A stretch of 64,000 nt of DNA. Origin: Vicinamibacterales bacterium (GTDB lineage Bacteria; Acidobacteriota; Vicinamibacteria; Vicinamibacterales; CAVVIG01). Both the position numbers and the translations under genes were made by a program. The notes below the pieces were generated by a model that had not been told where the DNA came from, did not search any database, and saw only the letters and a program-made list of their open reading frames with translations. How positions within the stretch are numbered: position 1 is the first letter of the stretch; every line of letters begins with the position of its first letter. The stretch is taken from NCBI GenBank assembly GCA_035693505.1, contig DASSGK010000574.1, positions 62 through 64,061 of the forward strand, written 5' to 3'. Shown here in pieces: positions 22,155 through 62,727 of this stretch.

Positions 22155-22280
22155 CTTCGTGCGCGCCCGCCCCAGGCCCCACAGACTCTTCGACACCCGC
22201 GCATAAACCTTGACCCGTCCCGTCTCCGGGTATATAGCCACAGTGACGTTTGTCGCTTGCGGCGAAGAAGAGAGGCGCTC

Positions 22281-23114
22281 ATGAGCCGGACGGGACAAAG
22301 GCTCGCGGTTTTCCTGGCGTTCGCGCTTGGCTGCGTCTGCGCGCACGCGGCGGCCGCACAGGATCGATCGGCCCCGCGTCCCGAGCCGCGGGCGGCTACC
22401 AATCCATTGGAAGGTAACGCGCTGGCCATCAGCAACGGCGCCGCCATGTTCCGCAACCGCTGCGCGGGCTGCCACGGACCCGATGCGCACGGCTACCTCG
22501 GTCCCGATCTCACGTCGTACTGGTCCGCCGGCGGCACCGACGCTCGCATGTTCGACATCGTCCGGAAAGGCGTCCCCGGCACAGAGATGATTGGCGCGGA
22601 TCCGCTGCGCGTGCTCGACAAGGACATCTGGCAGACGCTCGCCTACATCCGCACGCTGAGTGCAGTCCCTGCCGCGGCGCCGACCGGGGACGCCGTGAGT
22701 GGCGAACGCGTCTTCAGGACGAACTGCGCGAGCTGTCACCGGGTCAACGGACGCGGCGGGCAACTCGGTCCCGATCTCTCGCGCATCGGATCGGCGCGGC
22801 CCCGCGCCGGACTCGCGAGCAAGATTCGCGGATCGAGCGATGTCATCCGGCCGGGATACGAGCCGGTGACGCTGGTGACCCGCGACGGCGAGCGCATTCG
22901 CGGCGTCAGGAAGAACGAAGACGAGTTCTCGATTCAGATCATGGACGCGCGCGAGCGCCTCCAGGGATACGTCAAGGCCAACCTGACCGCGATCACGTTC
23001 GACAAGCAATCGCTGATGCCGGTGTACGGTCCCGATCGGTTGAACGATCGCGACTTCGACGATCTCCTGCGGTACCTGACGTCGCTCCGCGGGGCGACCG
23101 AGACGGCACGATGA
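22281..23114 (+). CDS. Di-haem c-type cytochrome (cassette 1)
   Basis: GAGAGG lies 5 nt before ATG 22281. Signal peptide. Two CxxCH motifs ('CAGCHG', 'CASCHR'). Paralogous to 59758..60624 along its full length. Confidence 0.85.
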   Translation: MSRTGQRLAVFLAFALGCVCAHAAAAQDRSAPRPEPRAATNPLEGNALAISNGAAMFRNRCAGCHGPDAHGYLGPDLTSYWSAGGTDARMFDIVRKGVPGTEMIGADPLRVLDKDIWQTLAYIRTLSAVPAAAPTGDAVSGERVFRTNCASCHRVNGRGGQLGPDLSRIGSARPRAGLASKIRGSSDVIRPGYEPVTLVTRDGERIRGVRKNEDEFSIQIMDARERLQGYVKANLTAITFDKQSLMPVYGPDRLNDRDFDDLLRYLTSLRGATETAR

Positions 23115-24799
23115 GGAGGAGCATGCGCAAGCAGACGAGAGGGCTGGATGGGCGGGACGGGCAGGATGGGCAGGACACGAATCGGATCGTACCTGCGGTG
23201 CTGGTGATTCTCGCGTGCGCGCTCTCGTGGACGCTCGTCTCCGCCCAGCAGCCGACCGCGTCGGTCACCTCGCAGGATCTTCGCGAGGGCCTGAAGAATC
23301 CGACGCGCTGGCTCACCTACGGCGGCGACTACGGCAACCTTCGCCACAGCCCGCTCACCCAGATTACGCCGGCGAACGTGAATCGGCTGGTGCCGCAGTG
23401 GCAGTTCCAGACCGACACGCTCGGCAAGTTCGAGGCGGCGCCGCTGGTCTTCGACGGCGTCGTTTACGTGACTGGACCGCTCGACACCGGATGGGCGCTC
23501 GACGCCCGCACCGGCCGGCAGATCTGGCGCTACCGGCGTGAACTCCCCAGCGGCCTCATCGCCTGCTGCGGCCTCGTGAACCGCGGCTTTGGCGTCCTGG
23601 GCGATCTCCTCTTCAAGACGACGCTCGATGCGCACATCGTGGCGATCAGCCGCAAGACGGGCGCGATCGAGTGGGACACAGCGATGGAGGATTTCCGTCG
23701 CGGCTACAGCGGGACGACCGCGCCGCTCGTCGTGAAAGATAAAGTGATCGTCGGCATTGCCGGCGCCGAGTACGGCATTCGCGGTTTCATCGATGCGTAC
23801 GATGCGCAAACGGGAAAACAAGTCTGGCGGTTCTACACGACCGCGGGCCCCCAGGATCCCGGCCACGGCACATGGCGCGGGACCGATGCGAAGGCATGGG
23901 AGCACGGCGGCGGATCAATCTGGGTGCCCGGCGCCTACGATCCCGAGCTCAATCTCACCTACTGGGGCACGGGGAACGCGGGGCCTGACTACAACGGCCT
24001 CGAGCGCGAGGGCGACAATTTGTACACCGCATCGGTGGTTGCGCTCGACGCCGACACGGGCAAGCTGCGCTGGCACTATCAATTCACACCGCACGACATC
24101 TGGGACTACGACTCGACGCAAATGCCGGTGCTGGCTGACGTCACGCTCGGCGGAGAGCTGCGAAAAGTGGTCCTCTTCGCGAATCGCAACGGGTTCTTCT
24201 ACGTGCTCGATCGCGCGACAGGCAATCTGATTCGCGGCAAGCCGTTCATCCAGACGACGTGGGCGAAGGAAATCCGGGCGGATGGCCGGCCGATGCTCCT
24301 GCCCAACTCCGTGCCGAGCGAGCAGGGCACGAGAGTCTGTCCCGATCAGTCCGGGGGGACCAACTGGATGCCGCCGTCGTTCGATCCGTCGCTCGGCCTC
24401 TTCTTCGTGACCGCGCGCGAGTCGTGCGGCATCTTCTTCACGTGGAAAGACGATTACACGCCCGGCGAGGCCTTTCGCGGCGGGGCGGTCCAGCGGCTCG
24501 GCGACACGCAGTCGAGCATGCTGCGCGCGATCGACGTCACGACCGGCGAGCGGCGCTGGGAGTTTCCATACACCACGCAGTCATGGGCCGGCGTGCTGTC
24601 CACGGCGTCCGGCCTGGTCTTCGCCGGCGGATCGGGAAACGTGATGGCGTTCGACGCGAAGAGCGGAAAAAACCTCTGGCATTTCCAGACCGGCTCGTCG
24701 CTCTACGCGGGCGCGATGACCTACATGGTCGACGGCCGCCAGTACGTCCTCTTGCCTGCCGGTACGACGTTGACCGCGTTCGCGCTCGCAGAATTTTAA
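23111..24799 (+). CDS. PQQ-dependent alcohol dehydrogenase, methanol/ethanol family (cassette 1)
   Basis: ATGA overlap with the cytochrome gene. 'LTYGGDYGNLRHSPL', vicinal 'ACCG', 'GAEYGIRG', 'YWGTGNAGP' and 'HDIWDYD' (Asp codons at 24104 and 24110). Confidence 0.92.
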   Translation: MRRSMRKQTRGLDGRDGQDGQDTNRIVPAVLVILACALSWTLVSAQQPTASVTSQDLREGLKNPTRWLTYGGDYGNLRHSPLTQITPANVNRLVPQWQFQTDTLGKFEAAPLVFDGVVYVTGPLDTGWALDARTGRQIWRYRRELPSGLIACCGLVNRGFGVLGDLLFKTTLDAHIVAISRKTGAIEWDTAMEDFRRGYSGTTAPLVVKDKVIVGIAGAEYGIRGFIDAYDAQTGKQVWRFYTTAGPQDPGHGTWRGTDAKAWEHGGGSIWVPGAYDPELNLTYWGTGNAGPDYNGLEREGDNLYTASVVALDADTGKLRWHYQFTPHDIWDYDSTQMPVLADVTLGGELRKVVLFANRNGFFYVLDRATGNLIRGKPFIQTTWAKEIRADGRPMLLPNSVPSEQGTRVCPDQSGGTNWMPPSFDPSLGLFFVTARESCGIFFTWKDDYTPGEAFRGGAVQRLGDTQSSMLRAIDVTTGERRWEFPYTTQSWAGVLSTASGLVFAGGSGNVMAFDAKSGKNLWHFQTGSSLYAGAMTYMVDGRQYVLLPAGTTLTAFALAEF

Positions 24800-24805
24800 G
24801 TTGCT

Positions 24806-25807
24806 ATGACGAGTCAGCGAACGCGCGTGGTGTTTGGGATTGTTCTGGTGTTGAGCGCATCGGCACTCGTGCCGTCCCGGATCGTGTCGGCTCCGGTCGC
24901 CGGTTATCAGGAAGTGAAGGATTGGCCCAGGCTCCCCTCGAGCGTCCAGCTCGGGGAAGCCGCAGGCGTGGCCGTCGACATGAACGGCCATGTGTTCATC
25001 TTCCACCGGCCGGGCCGAGGGTTCGACACAGCGGCAACCGAAAAGCTCGCAGAGCCGCCGGTACTCGAGGTCGACGCCGATACGGGAATGTTGATTCACT
25101 CGTGGGGCGCCAACACGTTTCTTGTGCCTCACGGAATCACGATCGATCGCGACAACAACGTCTTTCTCACCGACGTCGGGCTGCAGCAGGTCTTCAAGTT
25201 CACGCACGACGGAAAGCCGCTCATCACGCTGGGCGAACCCCGCGTGGGGGCGTGGGATGCCACTCATTTCAATGAACCCACCGACATCCAGATTCGGCCC
25301 GACGGGTCGTTCTACGTGTCGGACGGCTACGTGAACAGCCGCGTCGCAATGTTCGACAGGAACGGCAAATGGACCGGGGAGTGGGGCAGGAAGGGCGCCG
25401 GCCCCGGCGAGTTCAGCAATCCCCACGGGATCACGTTCGTGCCAGGCAATGACGATATCCTCGTCGCCGACCGTGAAAACTCGCGGCTCCAGCTCTTCGA
25501 CCGGACTGGCGTGTTCAAGAGGCAGTGGACCGGTGTCAAGGATGCTCAGACGACCGGCCGTGTGTTCAGCGTGGCCGCCGATCCCGCCGGATTTTATTAC
25601 GTCGGCATCCGGCGAGCCGATTACGACAGCGAGCACACCGGCGTGCTGAAGCTCGATCGCGACTGGAACATTGTCACGTCGATTGGCTTCGGGCGGCCGG
25701 GCGACCCGGTGTTCAATGCCGTGCACGATCTCGCCGTGGGCCGCGACGGGTCGATCTATGTTGCCGAAACGCGCACGAAGCGGGTCGTCAAGCTTCGTCC
25801 ACGGTGA
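24806..25807 (+). CDS. NHL-repeat beta-propeller protein (peptidyl-alpha-hydroxyglycine lyase-like)
   Basis: Signal peptide. Repeated 'PHGITIDRDNNVFLTD', 'PTDIQIRPDGSFYVSDGY', 'PHGITFVPGNDDILVADRENSRLQLFD' and 'VHDLAVGRDGSIYVAE' blades. Confidence 0.8.
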   Translation: MTSQRTRVVFGIVLVLSASALVPSRIVSAPVAGYQEVKDWPRLPSSVQLGEAAGVAVDMNGHVFIFHRPGRGFDTAATEKLAEPPVLEVDADTGMLIHSWGANTFLVPHGITIDRDNNVFLTDVGLQQVFKFTHDGKPLITLGEPRVGAWDATHFNEPTDIQIRPDGSFYVSDGYVNSRVAMFDRNGKWTGEWGRKGAGPGEFSNPHGITFVPGNDDILVADRENSRLQLFDRTGVFKRQWTGVKDAQTTGRVFSVAADPAGFYYVGIRRADYDSEHTGVLKLDRDWNIVTSIGFGRPGDPVFNAVHDLAVGRDGSIYVAETRTKRVVKLRPR

Positions 25808-56668: not shown

Positions 56669-58108
56669 CTACCGATTGTGCAAGTCCCGAAGGAATGGCT
56701 TCGGGATCGGTTGACCGGTGAGCGTTTTCAGGAACTCTTTCAGCTGCGCCTTTTCGTGAGCTGAAAGGTGCAATGGCCGGATCTCCTTCGGTCCGCCGAG
56801 AAACGAGCCAACAGGATCCCCGCCCCGATCGTAGAACTCGAGGACATCATCGAGCGTCGCGGCCTGGCCGTCGCGGAAATAGGGAGCGGTCTCCGCGACC
56901 TGCCGAAGACCCTTCGTGCGCCACAAACCCGGTGGAATGGTCTGGCTGCAGAAATCGCCGTCTCGCTTCGTGCCGGGGTCGTCGCTGAAGTGACCGTTGA
57001 CGTTGAAGTCGCCGTCGGCGATCGTCGGATCGCAGATCAGCGCTTGATTGGCGGCGCGTCCCTTTTCGGTGGGATCGGCGTGGGGTGAGAGGTTCTGATT
57101 GATCTGCAGGCCGATGACATGGAAGTCGTCGTCCGACAACAGCGGCGTATTGTGGCAGCCGACGCAGCCCGCCTTGCCGACGAAAAGCTTGAGCCCCTGT
57201 TTCGCTTCATGGTTGATGGCGTCCCGATCGCCCGCCACAAAACGATCGAACGGAGCATCGCGGCTCACCAGCTTGCGGAGATAGGCTTCGATCGCCTTGC
57301 CGTAGTTCACGAGGACGCGATTGACGATTTCTTTGTCGGCGGCACTGACACTGGTCCAGTTCGCGACGTCGGTGTAAGGCGAGCCCGTCGCTGGAAATCG
57401 GCTGTGGTCCGCCAGCGCGGGATCGAGCGGCCAGTCAGGAAACGCGTTGTTGTAGTCGGCTCGATAGTGCTCGAAGATCACGTGCGCGAGCTGCAGCCGG
57501 CTGCCATTCTGGACGGGCGGCCCCTCCGGTTCGCTCTGGGCATCGAACCACTCCGAGTCCGAGAAGCCGTCGTTCTCCCGCCAATGCGCTCGTGATCCAG
57601 GGTGGACATAGAAGACCGTGTTGACGATGCTGCTGACGTTGCGCGTCATCCACAGCGACCCCAGCGCCGTCGCATTCGGTATGGCGCCTCCATTGTTCGA
57701 CCGTATGTCGAACAGCCACTTCGACTCCGGCATATGACAATTGCGGCAGGCGATCTTCTGCGTCTCTCCGATCGCGCCCAACTGGCCTTCCTCGGGCGTA
57801 CCCGTTTGAATCGGACCCGACAACCGCGGTTCGAAAAAGAGCTTTTGTCCAAGGAGCGCCGCGGCGGCGGAGTCCCGATACTTGTTCGTCGGATCGGCAG
57901 GCAGCGCCGGCAAGGGTGAAAGGGTCTTGATGATCGCCCATTCCTGGCTGGTCAAGCCGTCGGGATCGGCGTGCGAGGATCGGTCCGTCTGCGAGCGGGA
58001 GGCGCCAGCCACCTTGACGTAACTAAGCGATCCCACCGTGATCGATAGAAGCCCGACCAATACGGCGGCATAGAATCTTGCGTTCCTCGTCACCAAATCC
58101 TTCGCCAC
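56669..58108 (-). CDS. Di-haem cytochrome c peroxidase / MauG-family protein
   Basis: Two CxxCH motifs ('CRNCHM', 'CVGCHN'). 'APYFRDGQAATLDDVLEFY' is typical of the CCP/MauG C-terminus. Confidence 0.88.
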   Translation of the reverse strand: MAKDLVTRNARFYAAVLVGLLSITVGSLSYVKVAGASRSQTDRSSHADPDGLTSQEWAIIKTLSPLPALPADPTNKYRDSAAAALLGQKLFFEPRLSGPIQTGTPEEGQLGAIGETQKIACRNCHMPESKWLFDIRSNNGGAIPNATALGSLWMTRNVSSIVNTVFYVHPGSRAHWRENDGFSDSEWFDAQSEPEGPPVQNGSRLQLAHVIFEHYRADYNNAFPDWPLDPALADHSRFPATGSPYTDVANWTSVSAADKEIVNRVLVNYGKAIEAYLRKLVSRDAPFDRFVAGDRDAINHEAKQGLKLFVGKAGCVGCHNTPLLSDDDFHVIGLQINQNLSPHADPTEKGRAANQALICDPTIADGDFNVNGHFSDDPGTKRDGDFCSQTIPPGLWRTKGLRQVAETAPYFRDGQAATLDDVLEFYDRGGDPVGSFLGGPKEIRPLHLSAHEKAQLKEFLKTLTGQPIPKPFLRDLHNR

Positions 58109-58153: not shown

Positions 58154-59761
58154 CTACGGCTCCTTCGGCAACGCGAACGCGAAGAGCGCATCGCCCGCTG
58201 CGATGGCGACATACTGGCGGCGGTCCACCGAGAAGCTCACCGCGGCGGTGTTGATCGACGCGCCGAGCTGGATGTGCCAGAGATCTTTCCCGGTCTCGGC
58301 GTCCAGTGCGATGAAGTTCCCCTGTCCGTCGCCGGAGAACACGAGGCCGCCGGCCGTCGAGAAGACACCCGCCCAGGCGTCGGCGTGCTCGCGGAACTCC
58401 CACCGCACGTTCCCGGTCTTCGGATCCACGGCACGGATCGCGCTCTCCTGTCGCTCTTCGGGCAGCGGGAAGAACGCGCTGCCGATGAACAGCCGCCCCG
58501 GCTGGTACGGCGGCTCGAGCTTCTCGTCCGACATGAACGAGTCGCACTGCTCGTAGCTGAAGAAGTAGACGAGGTGCGTGCGCGGACTGTAGGACGGTGA
58601 GTGCCAGTTGGTGCCGCCGGTGCCGCTCGGACATACGCGATTGCCTTCCGCGGTCGGCTCGGTGTTGGGCAGGACCACGGGCCGGCCGTTGCCGTCGATC
58701 TCCTTCGCCCAGGTGACTTGCGTGTACGGCCTGCCGAGCAGGAAGGCGCCCGTGACGCGATCGAGCACGTAGAAGAATCCGTTCCGGTTGGCGACGGCGA
58801 CGAGCTTGCGCGGCTGGCCGGCAATCGTGTCGTCGAACAGGATCGGCGTGTGCGTCGAATCCCAGTCGTGGACGTCGTGCGGCGTGAACTGGAAATGCCA
58901 CTTCATCGTGCCGGTGTCGGGATCGATCGCGAGCAGTGAGTCCGAGTAGAGGTTGTCGCCGAGACGATTCGCGCCGTACATCTGCGGTCCAGGGTTGCCG
59001 GTGCCCCAGTAGATCAGGTTGAGCGTCGGATCGTACGAGCCGGTGACCCAGGTCGGCGCGCCGCCGCGCTTCCACGAGTCACCCTTCCAGGTGTCGTTGC
59101 CTTTCTCGCCCTCGCCGGGAATCGTGTACAGCCGCCACGCGCGGGTTCCCGTGTCCGCCTCGTAGGCGTCGATGAAGCCGCGCACGCCGTACTCGCCGCC
59201 GGCGACGCCGACGATGATCCGGTTTTTCACGACGAGCGGCGCGCCGGTGAAGCTGTAGCCCTTGTCGGCGTCCGCCGCGGCGACGTCCCAGCGCACGCGC
59301 CCCGTCTTCGCGTCGAGGCTCACGACGTGCGCGTCGAGCGTGCCCATGAACAGGCGGTCGCCGAGCGCGGCGAAGCCGCGGTTCTGCGGGCCGCAGCAGA
59401 GCGACATCTCTTTCGGCAGCGTCCGCTGGTAGTGCCAAAGCGGACGGCCGGTGCGCGTGTCCACCGCATACGCGTGGTTCTGCGGCGTCGTCAGGTACAT
59501 GATGCCGTCGATCACCAGCGGCGTCGTCTCGTGGCGGCCGCGCACGCCGGTCTGAAACACCCACTGCAGCGAGAGACGCTGCACGTTCGTGCGGTTGATC
59601 TGATCGAGCGGCGAGAACCGGCTGCCGTCGTAGGCGCCCGAATACATCATCCACTGCTGCGGCTCGGACGCGGCGTTGGCCAGGCGCTCCGTCGTGATTT
59701 GCGCCGAGAGCGACGCCGTCGCGAGGCCGAGCACGAGAAGGACACCGATGTGTGTTCTCAT
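58154..59761 (-). CDS. PQQ-dependent alcohol dehydrogenase, methanol/ethanol family (cassette 2)
   Basis: Start at 'MRTHIGVLLVLGLATASLSAQ', with an ATGA overlap with the upstream cytochrome stop. 'LCCG', 'GGEYGVRG', 'YWGTGNPGP' and 'HDVHDWD' (Asp codons at 58865..58867 and 58859..58861). Confidence 0.92.
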   Translation of the reverse strand: MRTHIGVLLVLGLATASLSAQITTERLANAASEPQQWMMYSGAYDGSRFSPLDQINRTNVQRLSLQWVFQTGVRGRHETTPLVIDGIMYLTTPQNHAYAVDTRTGRPLWHYQRTLPKEMSLCCGPQNRGFAALGDRLFMGTLDAHVVSLDAKTGRVRWDVAAADADKGYSFTGAPLVVKNRIIVGVAGGEYGVRGFIDAYEADTGTRAWRLYTIPGEGEKGNDTWKGDSWKRGGAPTWVTGSYDPTLNLIYWGTGNPGPQMYGANRLGDNLYSDSLLAIDPDTGTMKWHFQFTPHDVHDWDSTHTPILFDDTIAGQPRKLVAVANRNGFFYVLDRVTGAFLLGRPYTQVTWAKEIDGNGRPVVLPNTEPTAEGNRVCPSGTGGTNWHSPSYSPRTHLVYFFSYEQCDSFMSDEKLEPPYQPGRLFIGSAFFPLPEERQESAIRAVDPKTGNVRWEFREHADAWAGVFSTAGGLVFSGDGQGNFIALDAETGKDLWHIQLGASINTAAVSFSVDRRQYVAIAAGDALFAFALPKEP

Positions 59762-60624
59762 TGTGAGCCATCCTTCCGGGCCGTTGCGGTGGATCGCAGC
59801 GTCTGCAGGTACGCGACAAGATTGTCGAGATCGGCATCGGGCAACCGGCTCGCGTCGTAGGCCGGCATCAGCGATCGGTTCTCGTGCTTGAAGCTTTTGA
59901 GCGTTTTCTTGTCGAGGCTGTGGACGCGCTCGCTCATGTCCATCAGTTGCACCGTAAAGGTGTCCTCGTTCATCGGCACGCCGACGATCGTCTGTCCGTC
60001 GCTCGTGACCGCGGTGACGGTGTCGTACTTCAAGGAGTCGCTGCCAAGCGAGCGAATCTCGGTGAGCTGCTTTGCCGGCTGACGGATCGAGTCGACCAGG
60101 TACGCGCGCGATCGCGCCGAGCCGACGGTCGTGAGCTCCGGTCCCAGCCGCCCGCCGCGGCCGCTGACGATGTGGCAGGTCGAGCAGCGGGCGGTGCTGA
60201 AGAACAGCGTCTCGCCGCGCGCCCGATCGCCAACCGGCGCCGCCGGCGGCTGCTGCACCGTGCGCAGATACGAGACGATCTGCCAGATTTCCTCGGTCTT
60301 GAGGTTGTTCGGCGGCATCGCCGTCCCGGCCACGCCGTCGGTGATCGTGCGCCTCAGATCGGCGTCGCTGCCGCCGTGATTCCACGTTCCGGTCGTGAGA
60401 TCGGGACCGCGCATTCCGCCGCGGCCGCCGACGCCGTGGCAGTAGACGCACTCCTGGCGGAACAGCACCGCGCCTTTCGTGATCGCCTGGGGATCACCGG
60501 AGAGCGGATTGCGCGATTGATCGGCCGGAGGCGGCGAGGGGACTTGTGCCGCCAGCTGAAGGGTGACGCCGCCGAGCAATGCGGCGGCCAGTGTGGCCCG
60601 CATCCAGAACACGCCCATGCGCAT
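59758..60624 (-). CDS. Di-haem c-type cytochrome (cassette 2)
   Basis: Start at 'MRMGVFWMRATLAAALLGG'. 'CVYCHG' and 'CSTCHI'. Collinear with 22281..23114 ('SLMPAYD...LVAYLQTLR' versus 'SLMPVYG...LLRYLTSLR'). Confidence 0.85.
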   Translation of the reverse strand: MRMGVFWMRATLAAALLGGVTLQLAAQVPSPPPADQSRNPLSGDPQAITKGAVLFRQECVYCHGVGGRGGMRGPDLTTGTWNHGGSDADLRRTITDGVAGTAMPPNNLKTEEIWQIVSYLRTVQQPPAAPVGDRARGETLFFSTARCSTCHIVSGRGGRLGPELTTVGSARSRAYLVDSIRQPAKQLTEIRSLGSDSLKYDTVTAVTSDGQTIVGVPMNEDTFTVQLMDMSERVHSLDKKTLKSFKHENRSLMPAYDASRLPDADLDNLVAYLQTLRSTATARKDGSQ

Positions 60625-60672: not shown

Positions 60673-62727
60673 ATGGTATTCCCCGTGAAGCGCATCATCT
60701 TCGCGGCGGCATGCCTGGGCGTCTGTTTCATCGCGCGCCTTGCCGGACAGTCCGGCGCGCGCAACGGCGAGTGGCGCAATTACGGCGGTGACACCGGTCA
60801 CACGCGTTACGCGCCTCTCGATCAGATCAACGCCTCGAACTTCAACACGCTCGAGATCGCGTGGCGGTTCAAGACCGACAGCCTCGGGCCGCGTCCTGAA
60901 TTCCAGTTCGAGTCGACGCCGCTGATGGTCAAGGGCGTCGTCTATTCGACCGGCGGATCGCGGCGCGCCGTCGTGGCGCTCGACGCCGCGACCGGCGAGA
61001 TGCTGTGGATGCACAGCGAGAACGAAGGCGCGCGCGGCGCGGCGGCGCCGCGCCAGTTGTCCGGGCGCGGGCTCGCCTATTGGTCCGACGGCGCGTCCGA
61101 CGATCGCATCCTCTACGTGACGCCGGGGTACCGGTTGGTCGCGCTGAACGCGCGCACCGGCGTGCCGGTCGCCTCGTTTGGTGAGAAGGGCGTCGTCGAT
61201 CTCAAGAAAGACGACGATCAGGAGATGGATCTCGTCACCGGCGAGATCGGCCTGCACTCGACGCCCACCGTTGCGCGGAACGTCGTGATCATCGGCGCCG
61301 CGCACAAGACCGGCGGCAACCCGAAGAGCCGGCGCAACGAGAAGGGATACGTCCGCGGGTTCGATGTCCGCACCGGCAAGCGGCTCTGGATCTTCCACAC
61401 GATTCCGCTCGCCGGCGAGTTCGGGCGCGACACGTGGGAAAAGGATTCGGCCTCCTACACCGGCAACACCGGCGTGTGGGGGCAGATCTCGGCGGACGAA
61501 GAGCTCGGCCTCGTCTACCTGCCGGTCGAACTGCCGACCGGCGACTACTACGGCGGTCATCGTCCCGGCAACGGACTGTTCGGCGAGAGCCTCGTCGCCG
61601 TCGATCTGCAGACCGGCAAGCGCCGCTGGCACTATCAACTGGTGCATCACGGGATCTGGGACTTCGACATCCCGTGTGCGCCGATCCTCGTCGACATCAC
61701 GGTGAACGGCCGCACGGTGAAGGCGGTCGCCCAGCCGACGAAGCAGGCGTGGCTCTACGTGTTCAACCGTGAGACCGGCGAGCCGATCTGGCCGATCGAG
61801 GAGCGCCCGGTCGCGAAAGGCGATGTGCCGGGCGAGTGGTACGCGCCGACGCAGCCGTTTCCGACCAAACCGCCGGCGTACGATCGGCAGGGCGTGTCGA
61901 TCGACGATCTGATCGACTTCACGCCGGAACTTCGCGCCGAAGCGACGAAGACAGTGGAGCGCTACAAGATCGGGCCGATCTTCACGCCGCCGGTCGTCAG
62001 CCAGCTGCCTGGTCCGCTGGCGACGCTCACCTCCGGCTTTGCGACCAACTGGCCAGGCGGCTCGTACGATCCGGAGACGCACATCGCGTACATCTATTCG
62101 CAGAGCGGTGCGAGCCCGCTCGGACTGGTCGCGCCACCCGCCGATCTGTCGGACATGAATTTCATTCAGGGCAGCGCGCTCACGGGCGCGCGCCGAACGG
62201 GCGGATCCGGATCGGCGGCCGGCGGCGGCCGTACCGGCGAGGACGCCCCTGCGGCAGCGGCCCCGGCTGCGCCCGCCGGCGGCGAAGGCGGCGGTGGACT
62301 CACCGTTCGCGGACTGCCTTTACTGAAACCGCCCTACGCGCGCATCAGCGCTATCGATTTGAACAAGGGCGACATCCTCTGGCAGATCGCGCACGGCGAG
62401 ACCGCGGACAACGTCCGCAACAACCCGTCGCTGAAGGGGCTGACCATTCCGCGAACCGGCCGCCCGGGATTGATCGGTCCGCTCGTGACCAAGACGCTCC
62501 TCATCGCCGGCGAAGGCGGTGTGTTCACGACGCCGTCCGGTGCACGCGGCGCGATGCTCCGGGCGTACGACAAGCGTGACGGGAAGGACGCCGGCGCCGT
62601 GTACATGCCGGCGCCCGAAAGCGGATCGCCGATGACCTACATGCACAACGGCAAGCAGTACATCGTCATCGCGATCAGCGGCGGAAACTACAGCGGCGAG
62701 TTATTGGCGTTCCGTTTACCAGGCTGA
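60673..62727 (+). CDS. PQQ-dependent dehydrogenase, glucose/quinate-type soluble form
   Basis: Signal peptide. 'WRNYGGDTGHTRYAPLDQI' and 'HHGIWDFDIPCAPILVD'. No vicinal Cys pair. C-terminal 'YMHNGKQYIVIA'. Confidence 0.9.
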   Translation: MVFPVKRIIFAAACLGVCFIARLAGQSGARNGEWRNYGGDTGHTRYAPLDQINASNFNTLEIAWRFKTDSLGPRPEFQFESTPLMVKGVVYSTGGSRRAVVALDAATGEMLWMHSENEGARGAAAPRQLSGRGLAYWSDGASDDRILYVTPGYRLVALNARTGVPVASFGEKGVVDLKKDDDQEMDLVTGEIGLHSTPTVARNVVIIGAAHKTGGNPKSRRNEKGYVRGFDVRTGKRLWIFHTIPLAGEFGRDTWEKDSASYTGNTGVWGQISADEELGLVYLPVELPTGDYYGGHRPGNGLFGESLVAVDLQTGKRRWHYQLVHHGIWDFDIPCAPILVDITVNGRTVKAVAQPTKQAWLYVFNRETGEPIWPIEERPVAKGDVPGEWYAPTQPFPTKPPAYDRQGVSIDDLIDFTPELRAEATKTVERYKIGPIFTPPVVSQLPGPLATLTSGFATNWPGGSYDPETHIAYIYSQSGASPLGLVAPPADLSDMNFIQGSALTGARRTGGSGSAAGGGRTGEDAPAAAAPAAPAGGEGGGGLTVRGLPLLKPPYARISAIDLNKGDILWQIAHGETADNVRNNPSLKGLTIPRTGRPGLIGPLVTKTLLIAGEGGVFTTPSGARGAMLRAYDKRDGKDAGAVYMPAPESGSPMTYMHNGKQYIVIAISGGNYSGELLAFRLPG

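Follow-up and report, generated by a model that had tools for sequence, protein, structure and literature searches.

Paired di-haem cytochrome and PQQ dehydrogenase genes in a Vicinamibacterales acidobacterium: a probable lanthanide-dependent module for alcohol oxidation

Two paralogous gene pairs in the genome of a Vicinamibacterales acidobacterium each encode a di-haem cytochrome c followed by a dehydrogenase of the pyrroloquinoline quinone (PQQ) family. We describe both from a window of 64,000 nucleotides (the whole stretch of DNA analysed), which lies on contig C574 of a metagenome-assembled genome (MAG) of 6.63 Mb (646 contigs, 65% G+C, 89% complete). With moderate confidence, we read each cassette as a periplasmic alcohol dehydrogenase that depends on a lanthanide and on scavenged PQQ, and that passes its electrons to the di-haem cytochrome encoded beside it. 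The cassettes belong to a known and already predicted kind of system, on which they are modest variations: the cytochrome partner is a variant, XoxJ is missing, and the host is auxotrophic for PQQ with no PqqU.

Cassette 1 is made up of the following features:

22281..23114, + strand: di-haem cytochrome c gene, 277 amino acids, with a Sec signal peptide (open reading frame and profile search)
23111..23114, + strand: ATGA stop/start overlap from the cytochrome gene to the dehydrogenase gene
23111..24799, + strand: PQQ dehydrogenase gene (PQQ1), 562 amino acids, methanol/ethanol family, with a signal peptide and an eight-bladed propeller
24104..24112, + strand: codons of D332-Y333-D334, the catalytic Asp and the lanthanide-type Asp (sequence, alignments, and homologs)

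Cassette 2 has the same layout:

59758..60624, - strand: di-haem cytochrome c gene, 288 amino acids, with the two-domain architecture of the cassette 1 partner
59758..59761, - strand: ATGA stop/start overlap (sequence)
58154..59761, - strand: PQQ dehydrogenase gene (PQQ2), 535 amino acids, methanol/ethanol family
58859..58867, - strand: codons of D299-W300-D301 (converted from residue positions; alignments)

In cassette 1, GAGAGG stands before the ATG at 22281, as read from the sequence, and the cytochrome stop codon occupies 23112-23114; the haem motifs are CAGCH and CASCH. PQQ1 has the vicinal pair C152-C153, GAEYG at residue 218, WGTGN at 285, and WDYD at 331, where D332 is encoded at 24104-24106 and D334 at 24110-24112. 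These motifs and codons, the di-haem nature of the cytochrome, and the ATGA coupling had been described in a first-pass annotation of the window, and all of them are present in the sequence at those coordinates. The same annotation had reported that the two-gene unit, with its ATGA junction, recurs at 58154..60624 on the other strand, and it does. There, the cytochrome carries CVYCH and CSTCH, and PQQ2 carries CC at 122-123, GGEYG, WGTGN, and D299-W-D301. All four proteins (two cytochromes and two dehydrogenases) have signal peptides. Between the cassettes, the dehydrogenases are 50% and the cytochromes 40% identical, which marks them as old paralogs and not as a recent duplication.

Both dehydrogenases fall within the methanol/ethanol family by profile, with scores of 554.9 bits (PQQ1) and 572.4 bits (PQQ2) on TIGR03075 (PQQ-dependent dehydrogenase, methanol/ethanol family; cut-off 480.05). 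Among solved structures searched with phmmer, PedH (6ZCV, 6ZCW) is the best or second-best match at 361-385 bits; the top sequence match of PQQ1 is the Ca-dependent quinohaemoprotein alcohol dehydrogenase (ADH) ADH-IIB, 1KV9 (363 bits, 38% identity). XoxF structures (4MAE, 6DAM, 6OC5) match less well than PedH, at 288-354 bits, with 4MAE and 6DAM at 308-354, and ExaA and then the MxaF enzymes follow at lower scores. An AlphaFold2 model, which covers the cassette 1 dehydrogenase only (predicted local distance difference test 85.8, predicted template modelling score 0.86), superposes best on PedH 6ZCW, with a template modelling (TM) score of 0.86, a root-mean-square deviation (rmsd) of 2.0 A, and 36% identity. 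The modelled fold is the eight-bladed beta-propeller of the family, at TM 0.84-0.87 to at least 25 solved members. Neither PQQ1 nor PQQ2 contains a CxxCH motif and both end with the propeller, so the C-terminal haem domain of the type II quinohaemoproteins is absent from them.

The active site is complete in both enzymes. Both have the equivalents of the known ligands for PQQ and metal: E108, C152-C153, R158, T202, E220, W271, N289, D332, D334, R359, and N418 (PQQ1 numbering). Seven of these (E220, W271, N289, D332, D334, R359, and N418) are invariant among 116 database homologs of 62-96% identity.

The residue that bears on the metal is the second Asp of the D-x-D motif. In gap-free phmmer stretches, PQQ1 'tphdiwDyD' and PQQ2 'tphdvhDwD' align on PedH 'tphdgwDfD', and the D-W-D of PQQ2 aligns, again without gaps, on XoxF-SolV 4MAE 'tpwdswDyD'. 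Both enzymes also align on the Ca-dependent 1KV9 'tpgdswDfT', where Thr stands at the position of the second Asp. In XoxF1 this Asp coordinates La, and it is essential in XoxF1 and ExaF; every Ca structure has Ala, Ser, or Thr there, including the Thr of 1KV9 (Good et al. 2020, bioRxiv 10.1101/2020.02.25.964783). PedE has Ser and PedH has Asp at the same position (Wehrmann et al.). The rule stated in the first-pass annotation, by which the second Asp is a lanthanide ligand in XoxF and ExaF and is replaced by Ala, Ser, or Thr in Ca enzymes, agrees with Good et al. 2020. That annotation had also set, beforehand, the homology of the second Asp to the lanthanide-ligand position as one of two points on which its proposal could fall. 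The gap-free alignments to PedH and XoxF show the two positions to be homologous. The proposal itself, hedged as it was (both enzymes may be lanthanide-dependent), is supported by this homology together with the invariance of D334 across the 116 homologs.

The partner cytochrome combines two haem domains. Residues ~40-130 form a class I haem domain whose nearest structures are cytochromes cL: it superposes on 2C8S, from Methylorubrum extorquens, at 31% identity and an rmsd of 2.6 A, and on 2C8S and the Methylophaga protein 7C90 within 2.6-2.8 A. Residues ~135-270 form a TIGR02603 haem-binding domain with an inserted five-stranded, Sm/Hfq-like beta barrel; the cassette 1 and cassette 2 cytochromes score 93.6 and 109 bits on this model, both above its cut-off of 68.15. 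C61, C64, H65, and M103 in the first domain and C149, C152, H153, and M246 in the second are invariant in 25 cytochrome homologs, and the cassette 2 cytochrome keeps the same ligands. Since both CxxCH motifs and both methionines are invariant, two His/Met haems are indicated.

The closest solved relative of the whole chain is Kustd1711, a di-haem cytochrome c of Kuenenia stuttgartiensis (7ZS0), found by Foldseek with an E-value of 6e-11. By sequence, it matches the C-terminal haem domain of the cassette cytochrome with an E-value of 1e-14, and both proteins have two His/Met c haems. The resemblance has limits: identity is only 23-24%, and the predicted arrangement of the domains differs (TM 0.37). 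Kustd1711 is also an anammox protein without a link to a PQQ enzyme, unlike the cassette cytochrome. PMC11791136 gives its haem potentials as about +350 mV.

The pairing of cytochrome and dehydrogenase extends well beyond the window. The host genome holds ~16 methanol/ethanol-type and ~12 glucose/quinate-type PQQ dehydrogenases, nine of which pass the TIGR03075 cut-off; only six paralogs combine the Cys-Cys pair with the Glu, the Asn, and D-x-D. At least 10 of the 16 methanol/ethanol-type paralogs follow directly on a c-type cytochrome gene of the same strand, with a 4-nucleotide ATGA or GTGA overlap at 7 of 10 such junctions. Cassettes 1 and 2 are thus two of ten or more in this genome and not a special pair. 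Of the acidobacterial loci related to cassette 1, 30 in all, 26 have the cytochrome immediately upstream in a gene of its own, one has it fused, and 3 are cut at the contig start. All seven cassette 2 relatives with enough upstream DNA have the cytochrome-then-dehydrogenase order, and the orthologs of cassette 2 (85-98% identity) keep the upstream cytochrome. A layout found in so many paralogs and related loci is not a chance pairing. The overlap is more variable, being present as ATGA in 7 of 27 related loci, with gaps of 3-135 nucleotides in most: it is the tight linkage of the two genes that is conserved, not the ATGA junction itself.

In some paralogs the two genes have become one. The closest paralog of cassette 1 in the same genome (contig C35:21762-24155, + strand) is an in-frame fusion of 798 amino acids, in which a signal peptide is followed by the di-haem cytochrome, an Ala/Pro linker in place of the dehydrogenase signal peptide, and the propeller. 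Locus L053 encodes another cytochrome-dehydrogenase fusion, of 789 amino acids. In the databases, more than 100 clusters of 750-805 amino acids unite a cytochrome Pfam domain with a PQQ one (2611 hits at E<=1e-40), and metagenomes commonly contain the fused form. Natural fusions in such numbers are Rosetta-stone evidence for a direct partnership of cytochrome and dehydrogenase. The first-pass annotation had suggested that each enzyme has its own dedicated cytochrome acceptor; this suggestion is strengthened by the conserved synteny, by the natural fusion of the two proteins, and by the cL-like N-domain. We judge it highly likely that the cassette dehydrogenase works with PQQ and has this cytochrome as its partner.

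Other haem-propeller fusions occur in the genome: C121:4899-7061 and C450:5585-8209 carry an N-terminal mono-haem domain, and C590:84-2129 has a C-terminal CVVCH domain, like the classical type II quinohaemoproteins. Gene order is different in Binatia relatives (45% identity), where a small cytochrome lies downstream of the dehydrogenase. In one Binatia MAG (L075:3641-8034), a dehydrogenase with D-Y-D is followed by a putative periplasmic binding protein of 301 amino acids, a 151-amino-acid cytochrome, and a YncE-like propeller; we tentatively read the first three genes as the xoxF-J-G order known from XoxF systems. Similar Binatia loci run from L072 to L119, and many Binatia genomes have several tandem copies.

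In a maximum-likelihood tree with 46 rows and glucose-type paralogs as the root, PQQ1, PQQ2, and nine other paralogs of the genome share one clade of 25 rows (ultrafast bootstrap 100, Shimodaira-Hasegawa-like approximate likelihood-ratio test 99). The other rows of this clade are all from Acidobacteriota, bar one MAG labelled Acidimicrobiia. PedH, ADH-IIB, and XoxF2-SolV fall in a separate clade (98/98), so the cassette enzymes are not in any clade with a characterised enzyme. The tree was built without the very long C536 and C450, the frame-broken L049, and the glucose-type L066; its references are these three sequences from the PDB, and XoxF1, XoxF3, XoxF4, XoxF5, and ADH types 6-9 are not among them. 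The first-pass annotation had proposed placing both enzymes in a phylogeny of the lanthanide-enzyme clades. With these three references, the tree sets both enzymes in the Acidobacteriota clade (100/99), outside the clade that holds PedH and XoxF2-SolV. In a supplementary tree, Voutsinos et al. 2025 (ISME J) label Solibacter proteins 'PQQ_ADH_Type_8_Acidobacteria', and 'PQQ ADH Type 8 (Acidobacteria)' may be a name for the cassette clade, as a candidate only; the 'PQQ ADH Type 8' proteins include WP_011684813.1, WP_011687789.1, WP_011683826.1, and WP_011687035.1. The portion of that tree covered here has no PQQ1 or PQQ2 orthologs from the gp6 MAGs of Diamond. Strain Ellin6076 was not among the returns of a homology scan that started from a Bryobacteraceae homolog; cultured strains with members of the clade are Acidobacteriaceae bacterium KBS 146 and Edaphobacter sp. 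HDX4. The MAG labelled Acidimicrobiia (L060, VFZG01000004.1, Actinomycetota) encodes two proteins of the acidobacterial clade along with the upstream cytochrome, a case of either a binning or labelling error or horizontal transfer.

Several observations weigh against the reading of the cassettes as lanthanide-dependent enzymes that use scavenged PQQ. Their clade has no characterised member and stands apart from every enzyme of known metal in the 46-row tree. D-x-D occurs in nearly all of the ~27 PQQ-dehydrogenase paralogs of the genome, the glucose type included, which leaves the motif without discriminating power inside this genome. A characterised membrane glucose dehydrogenase works with Ca, Mg, and other metals despite its D-x-D (ISME J paper), which makes the motif necessary rather than sufficient. 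The genome, a MAG of 89% completeness, yielded no known lanthanide-handling genes and no XoxJ/MoxJ (no match to TIGR03871 or TIGR03870, the latter of which matched no control genome either). Finally, PqqU was not found in the genus, where the E. coli protein gives only generic TonB-receptor similarity.

A first alternative concerns the metal. If D-x-D were ancestral in the acidobacterial radiation, the cassettes could encode PQQ alcohol dehydrogenases with a cytochrome partner that use Ca2+ or are promiscuous for metal. The presence of the motif in nearly every paralog, whatever the subfamily, would fit such enzymes, as would the Ca- and Mg-accepting glucose dehydrogenase, the lack of recognised lanthanide-handling genes, and the ability of XoxF1 to load Ca when lanthanide is absent (Good et al. 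2020). Set against this, the Ca-loaded XoxF1 is almost inactive, and the solved structures of the methanol/ethanol family all pair Asp with a lanthanide and Ala, Ser, or Thr with Ca (both Good et al. 2020); D334, in turn, does not vary in 116 homologs. We consider use of Ca or of several metals unlikely, and a lanthanide the likely metal of the cassette enzymes, with somewhat better than moderate confidence.

The supply of PQQ raises a second question. Searches of the host genome did not find PqqB, PqqC, or PqqE, and PqqC was found in none of the 13 genomes of the genus, several of which are 92-97% complete. The search works, since it detected PqqC in 5 of 48 other relatives. The first-pass annotation had noted that the window lacks pqq biosynthesis genes; for pqqB, pqqC, and pqqE this extends to the whole genome, and for PqqC to the 13 genomes of the genus. 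All 12 sister genomes of the genus nevertheless carry 4-12 members of the dehydrogenase family. With no PqqC across the genus, PQQ would have to be acquired from outside. Scavenging of PQQ by non-producers is documented, Vicinamibacteria included. Full-length orthologs of E. coli PqqU are present in five relatives outside the genus; on the NCBIfam PqqU model, the score reached is 63 bits where the cut-off is 1200.

Could the cassette enzymes be 'empty' quinoprotein homologs that do not use PQQ, and that have another cofactor or a non-catalytic role? The missing pqqB, pqqC, and pqqE genes, and the missing PqqC and PqqU of the genus, would suit this explanation, and PQQ1 and PQQ2 reach 544.8 and 554.5 bits on TIGR04528, the 'acido-empty-quinoprotein group A'. 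Three sister paralogs of the genome (C169:14087-15835, C390:1135-2895, and C501:24980-26839), which lie inside the same 25-row clade, pass the TIGR04528 cut-off of 650 with 719-778 bits. In these three the vicinal Cys-Cys and the metal-ligand Glu are gone and D-W-D remains, and each has a di-haem cytochrome gene upstream. The cassette enzymes, however, fall below the cut-off that these three pass and above that of TIGR03075, and every PQQ- and metal-contacting residue checked in them is retained and conserved. Lack of synthesis is also no obstacle in itself, given the documented scavengers and a periplasmic location that requires PQQ to pass the outer membrane only. We regard the 'empty' explanation as very unlikely.

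On contig C484 (5385-14847), the gene of a TonB-dependent receptor comes after that of a glucose-type PQQ dehydrogenase, with two radical-SAM/SPASM genes a few kb on. We considered the receptor as a PqqU and rejected it, as it is haem/siderophore-like; the radical-SAM cluster as an alternative cofactor pathway is unsupported, its genes matching generic models only, far under cut-offs.

As for the cytochrome, the notion that it is not the direct acceptor and serves, for example, as a general periplasmic electron carrier or in maturation can draw on the scores of its N-domain below the cut-offs of MoxG (TIGR03872, 51 bits against 147.8) and PedF (TIGR04494, 42 against 122) and on the poor conservation of the ATGA overlap among orthologs, but it seems most improbable against adjacency conserved across the phylum, many independent in-frame fusions with an Ala/Pro linker in place of the dehydrogenase signal peptide, and the modelled similarity of the N-domain to cytochrome cL.

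The substrate can be narrowed to a degree. A formaldehyde-activating enzyme was not found in the genome, and nothing singles out methanol; given the 11 paralogs of the clade, several different alcohols or aldehydes are more likely substrates.

The surroundings of the cassettes include a possible promoter and three further genes. The promoter candidate lies in the 209-nucleotide gap upstream of cassette 1:

22210..22236, + strand: possible sigma-70-like promoter, TTGACC, 15 nucleotides, TATATA (read by eye; weak)

A consensus promoter scan for spacers of 16-18 nucleotides did not report this candidate, as its spacer is 15 nucleotides long. An exported six-bladed propeller of NHL repeats is encoded at 24806-25807 (+ strand), starting 7 nucleotides past the cassette 1 stop. 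We rejected it as a component of the cassette because none of the 30 related acidobacterial loci has a homolog beside it; it looks like a lineage-specific addition. On the - strand, 45 nucleotides downstream of the PQQ2 gene, lies a gene of the di-haem cytochrome c peroxidase/MauG family (56669-58108), which was likewise rejected as a component of cassette 2, being absent downstream of orthologs, including that of a 98%-identical locus (L125). On the other side, divergent from cassette 2, a third PQQ dehydrogenase is encoded at 60673-62727 (+ strand); it is of the soluble glucose/quinate type with D-F-D, and its product scores 368 bits on TIGR03074, under the cut-off of that model. The divergent layout of this gene and cassette 2 is found at the 98%-identical locus too.

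How do the cassettes compare with characterised systems? PedH/ExaF (PQQ-ADH type 2b) shares with the cassette enzymes the Cys-Cys pair, the Glu, the Asn, D-x-D, and the PQQ ligands, and is likewise periplasmic and cytochrome-linked. It differs in belonging to another clade of the tree and in its partner, the mono-haem c550 PedF, where the cassettes encode a di-haem cytochrome of 277-288 amino acids upstream. The cassette host, moreover, has no PQQ biosynthesis. The XoxF/XoxG/XoxJ system is of the same family and fold, its D-x-D aligns with that of the cassette enzymes, and the N-domain of the cassette cytochrome resembles cytochrome cL; XoxG, however, is mono-haem and encoded downstream, whereas the cassette cytochrome is di-haem and encoded upstream, with no XoxJ homolog. 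In the type II quinohaemoprotein ADHs (ADH-IIB 1KV9, ADH-IIG 1YIQ, and 1KB0), a haem c domain is wired to the propeller, as in the C35 fusion. These enzymes are Ca-dependent, with one C-terminal haem domain and Thr at the diagnostic position, in contrast to the two haems of the cassettes, carried on a separate upstream gene or, in paralogs, on an N-terminal fusion. The TIGR04528 group is a sister lineage inside the same clade (100/99) with hosts that lack PQQ synthesis and with di-haem cytochrome genes upstream; it is set apart by its three true members here, which lost the Cys-Cys pair and the metal Glu that the cassette enzymes keep.

Enzymes of this general kind have been reported from the phylum before. 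XoxF-type enzymes with the extra Asp are known from Gp1, Gp5, and Gp6 Acidobacteria (Diamond 2019) and from weathered granite (Voutsinos 2024). Ocean acidobacterial genomes have up to 70 predicted lanthanide PQQ dehydrogenases, with D-x-D also in glucose and sorbose dehydrogenases (ISME J paper). In a literature search of partial coverage, we found no description of this di-haem partner or of the N-terminal fusion for the eight-bladed enzymes.

Taken as lanthanide-dependent and PQQ-scavenging, each cassette would work as a two-gene periplasmic module for alcohol oxidation in this Vicinamibacterales acidobacterium. The eight-bladed propeller dehydrogenase would bind PQQ taken from the environment, and Glu220, Asn289, and Asp334 would hold a trivalent light lanthanide together with the cofactor. 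Asp332 would act as the catalytic base while an alcohol or aldehyde substrate reduces PQQ. The reduced cofactor, PQQH2, may then be re-oxidised in one-electron steps, via the region of Cys152-Cys153, to haem 1 in the cL-like N-domain of the cytochrome. From there, electrons would reach haem 2, in the TIGR02603 domain related to Kustd1711, and pass into the aerobic respiratory chain.

A dependence on PQQ and lanthanides has already been proposed for Acidobacteria in published surveys, and the cassettes leave this general picture unchanged. To it, they add natural fusions that identify the likely physiological electron acceptor by a clear Rosetta-stone argument, the domain make-up of the di-haem cytochrome, and evidence across the genus for PQQ auxotrophy without PqqU. 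A bolder proposal is that the Acidobacteriota clade, in its split and fused forms, represents a distinct and undescribed quinohaemoprotein architecture, in which a cytochrome with a cL-like domain and a Kustd1711-like domain with an Sm-type insert is placed upstream of, or N-terminal to, a lanthanide-dependent propeller that acquires its PQQ by a route other than PqqU. We put this forward tentatively, as a possibility that we think rather doubtful. Vicinamibacterales rank with the most abundant bacteria of soils. Should this proposal hold, abundant soil bacteria would depend on PQQ supplied by their community and on rare earths; and if the ~10 cytochrome-linked dehydrogenases of each genome are in fact lanthanide enzymes supplied with scavenged PQQ, the turnover of alcohols and aldehydes by Vicinamibacterales would hinge on two external cofactors.

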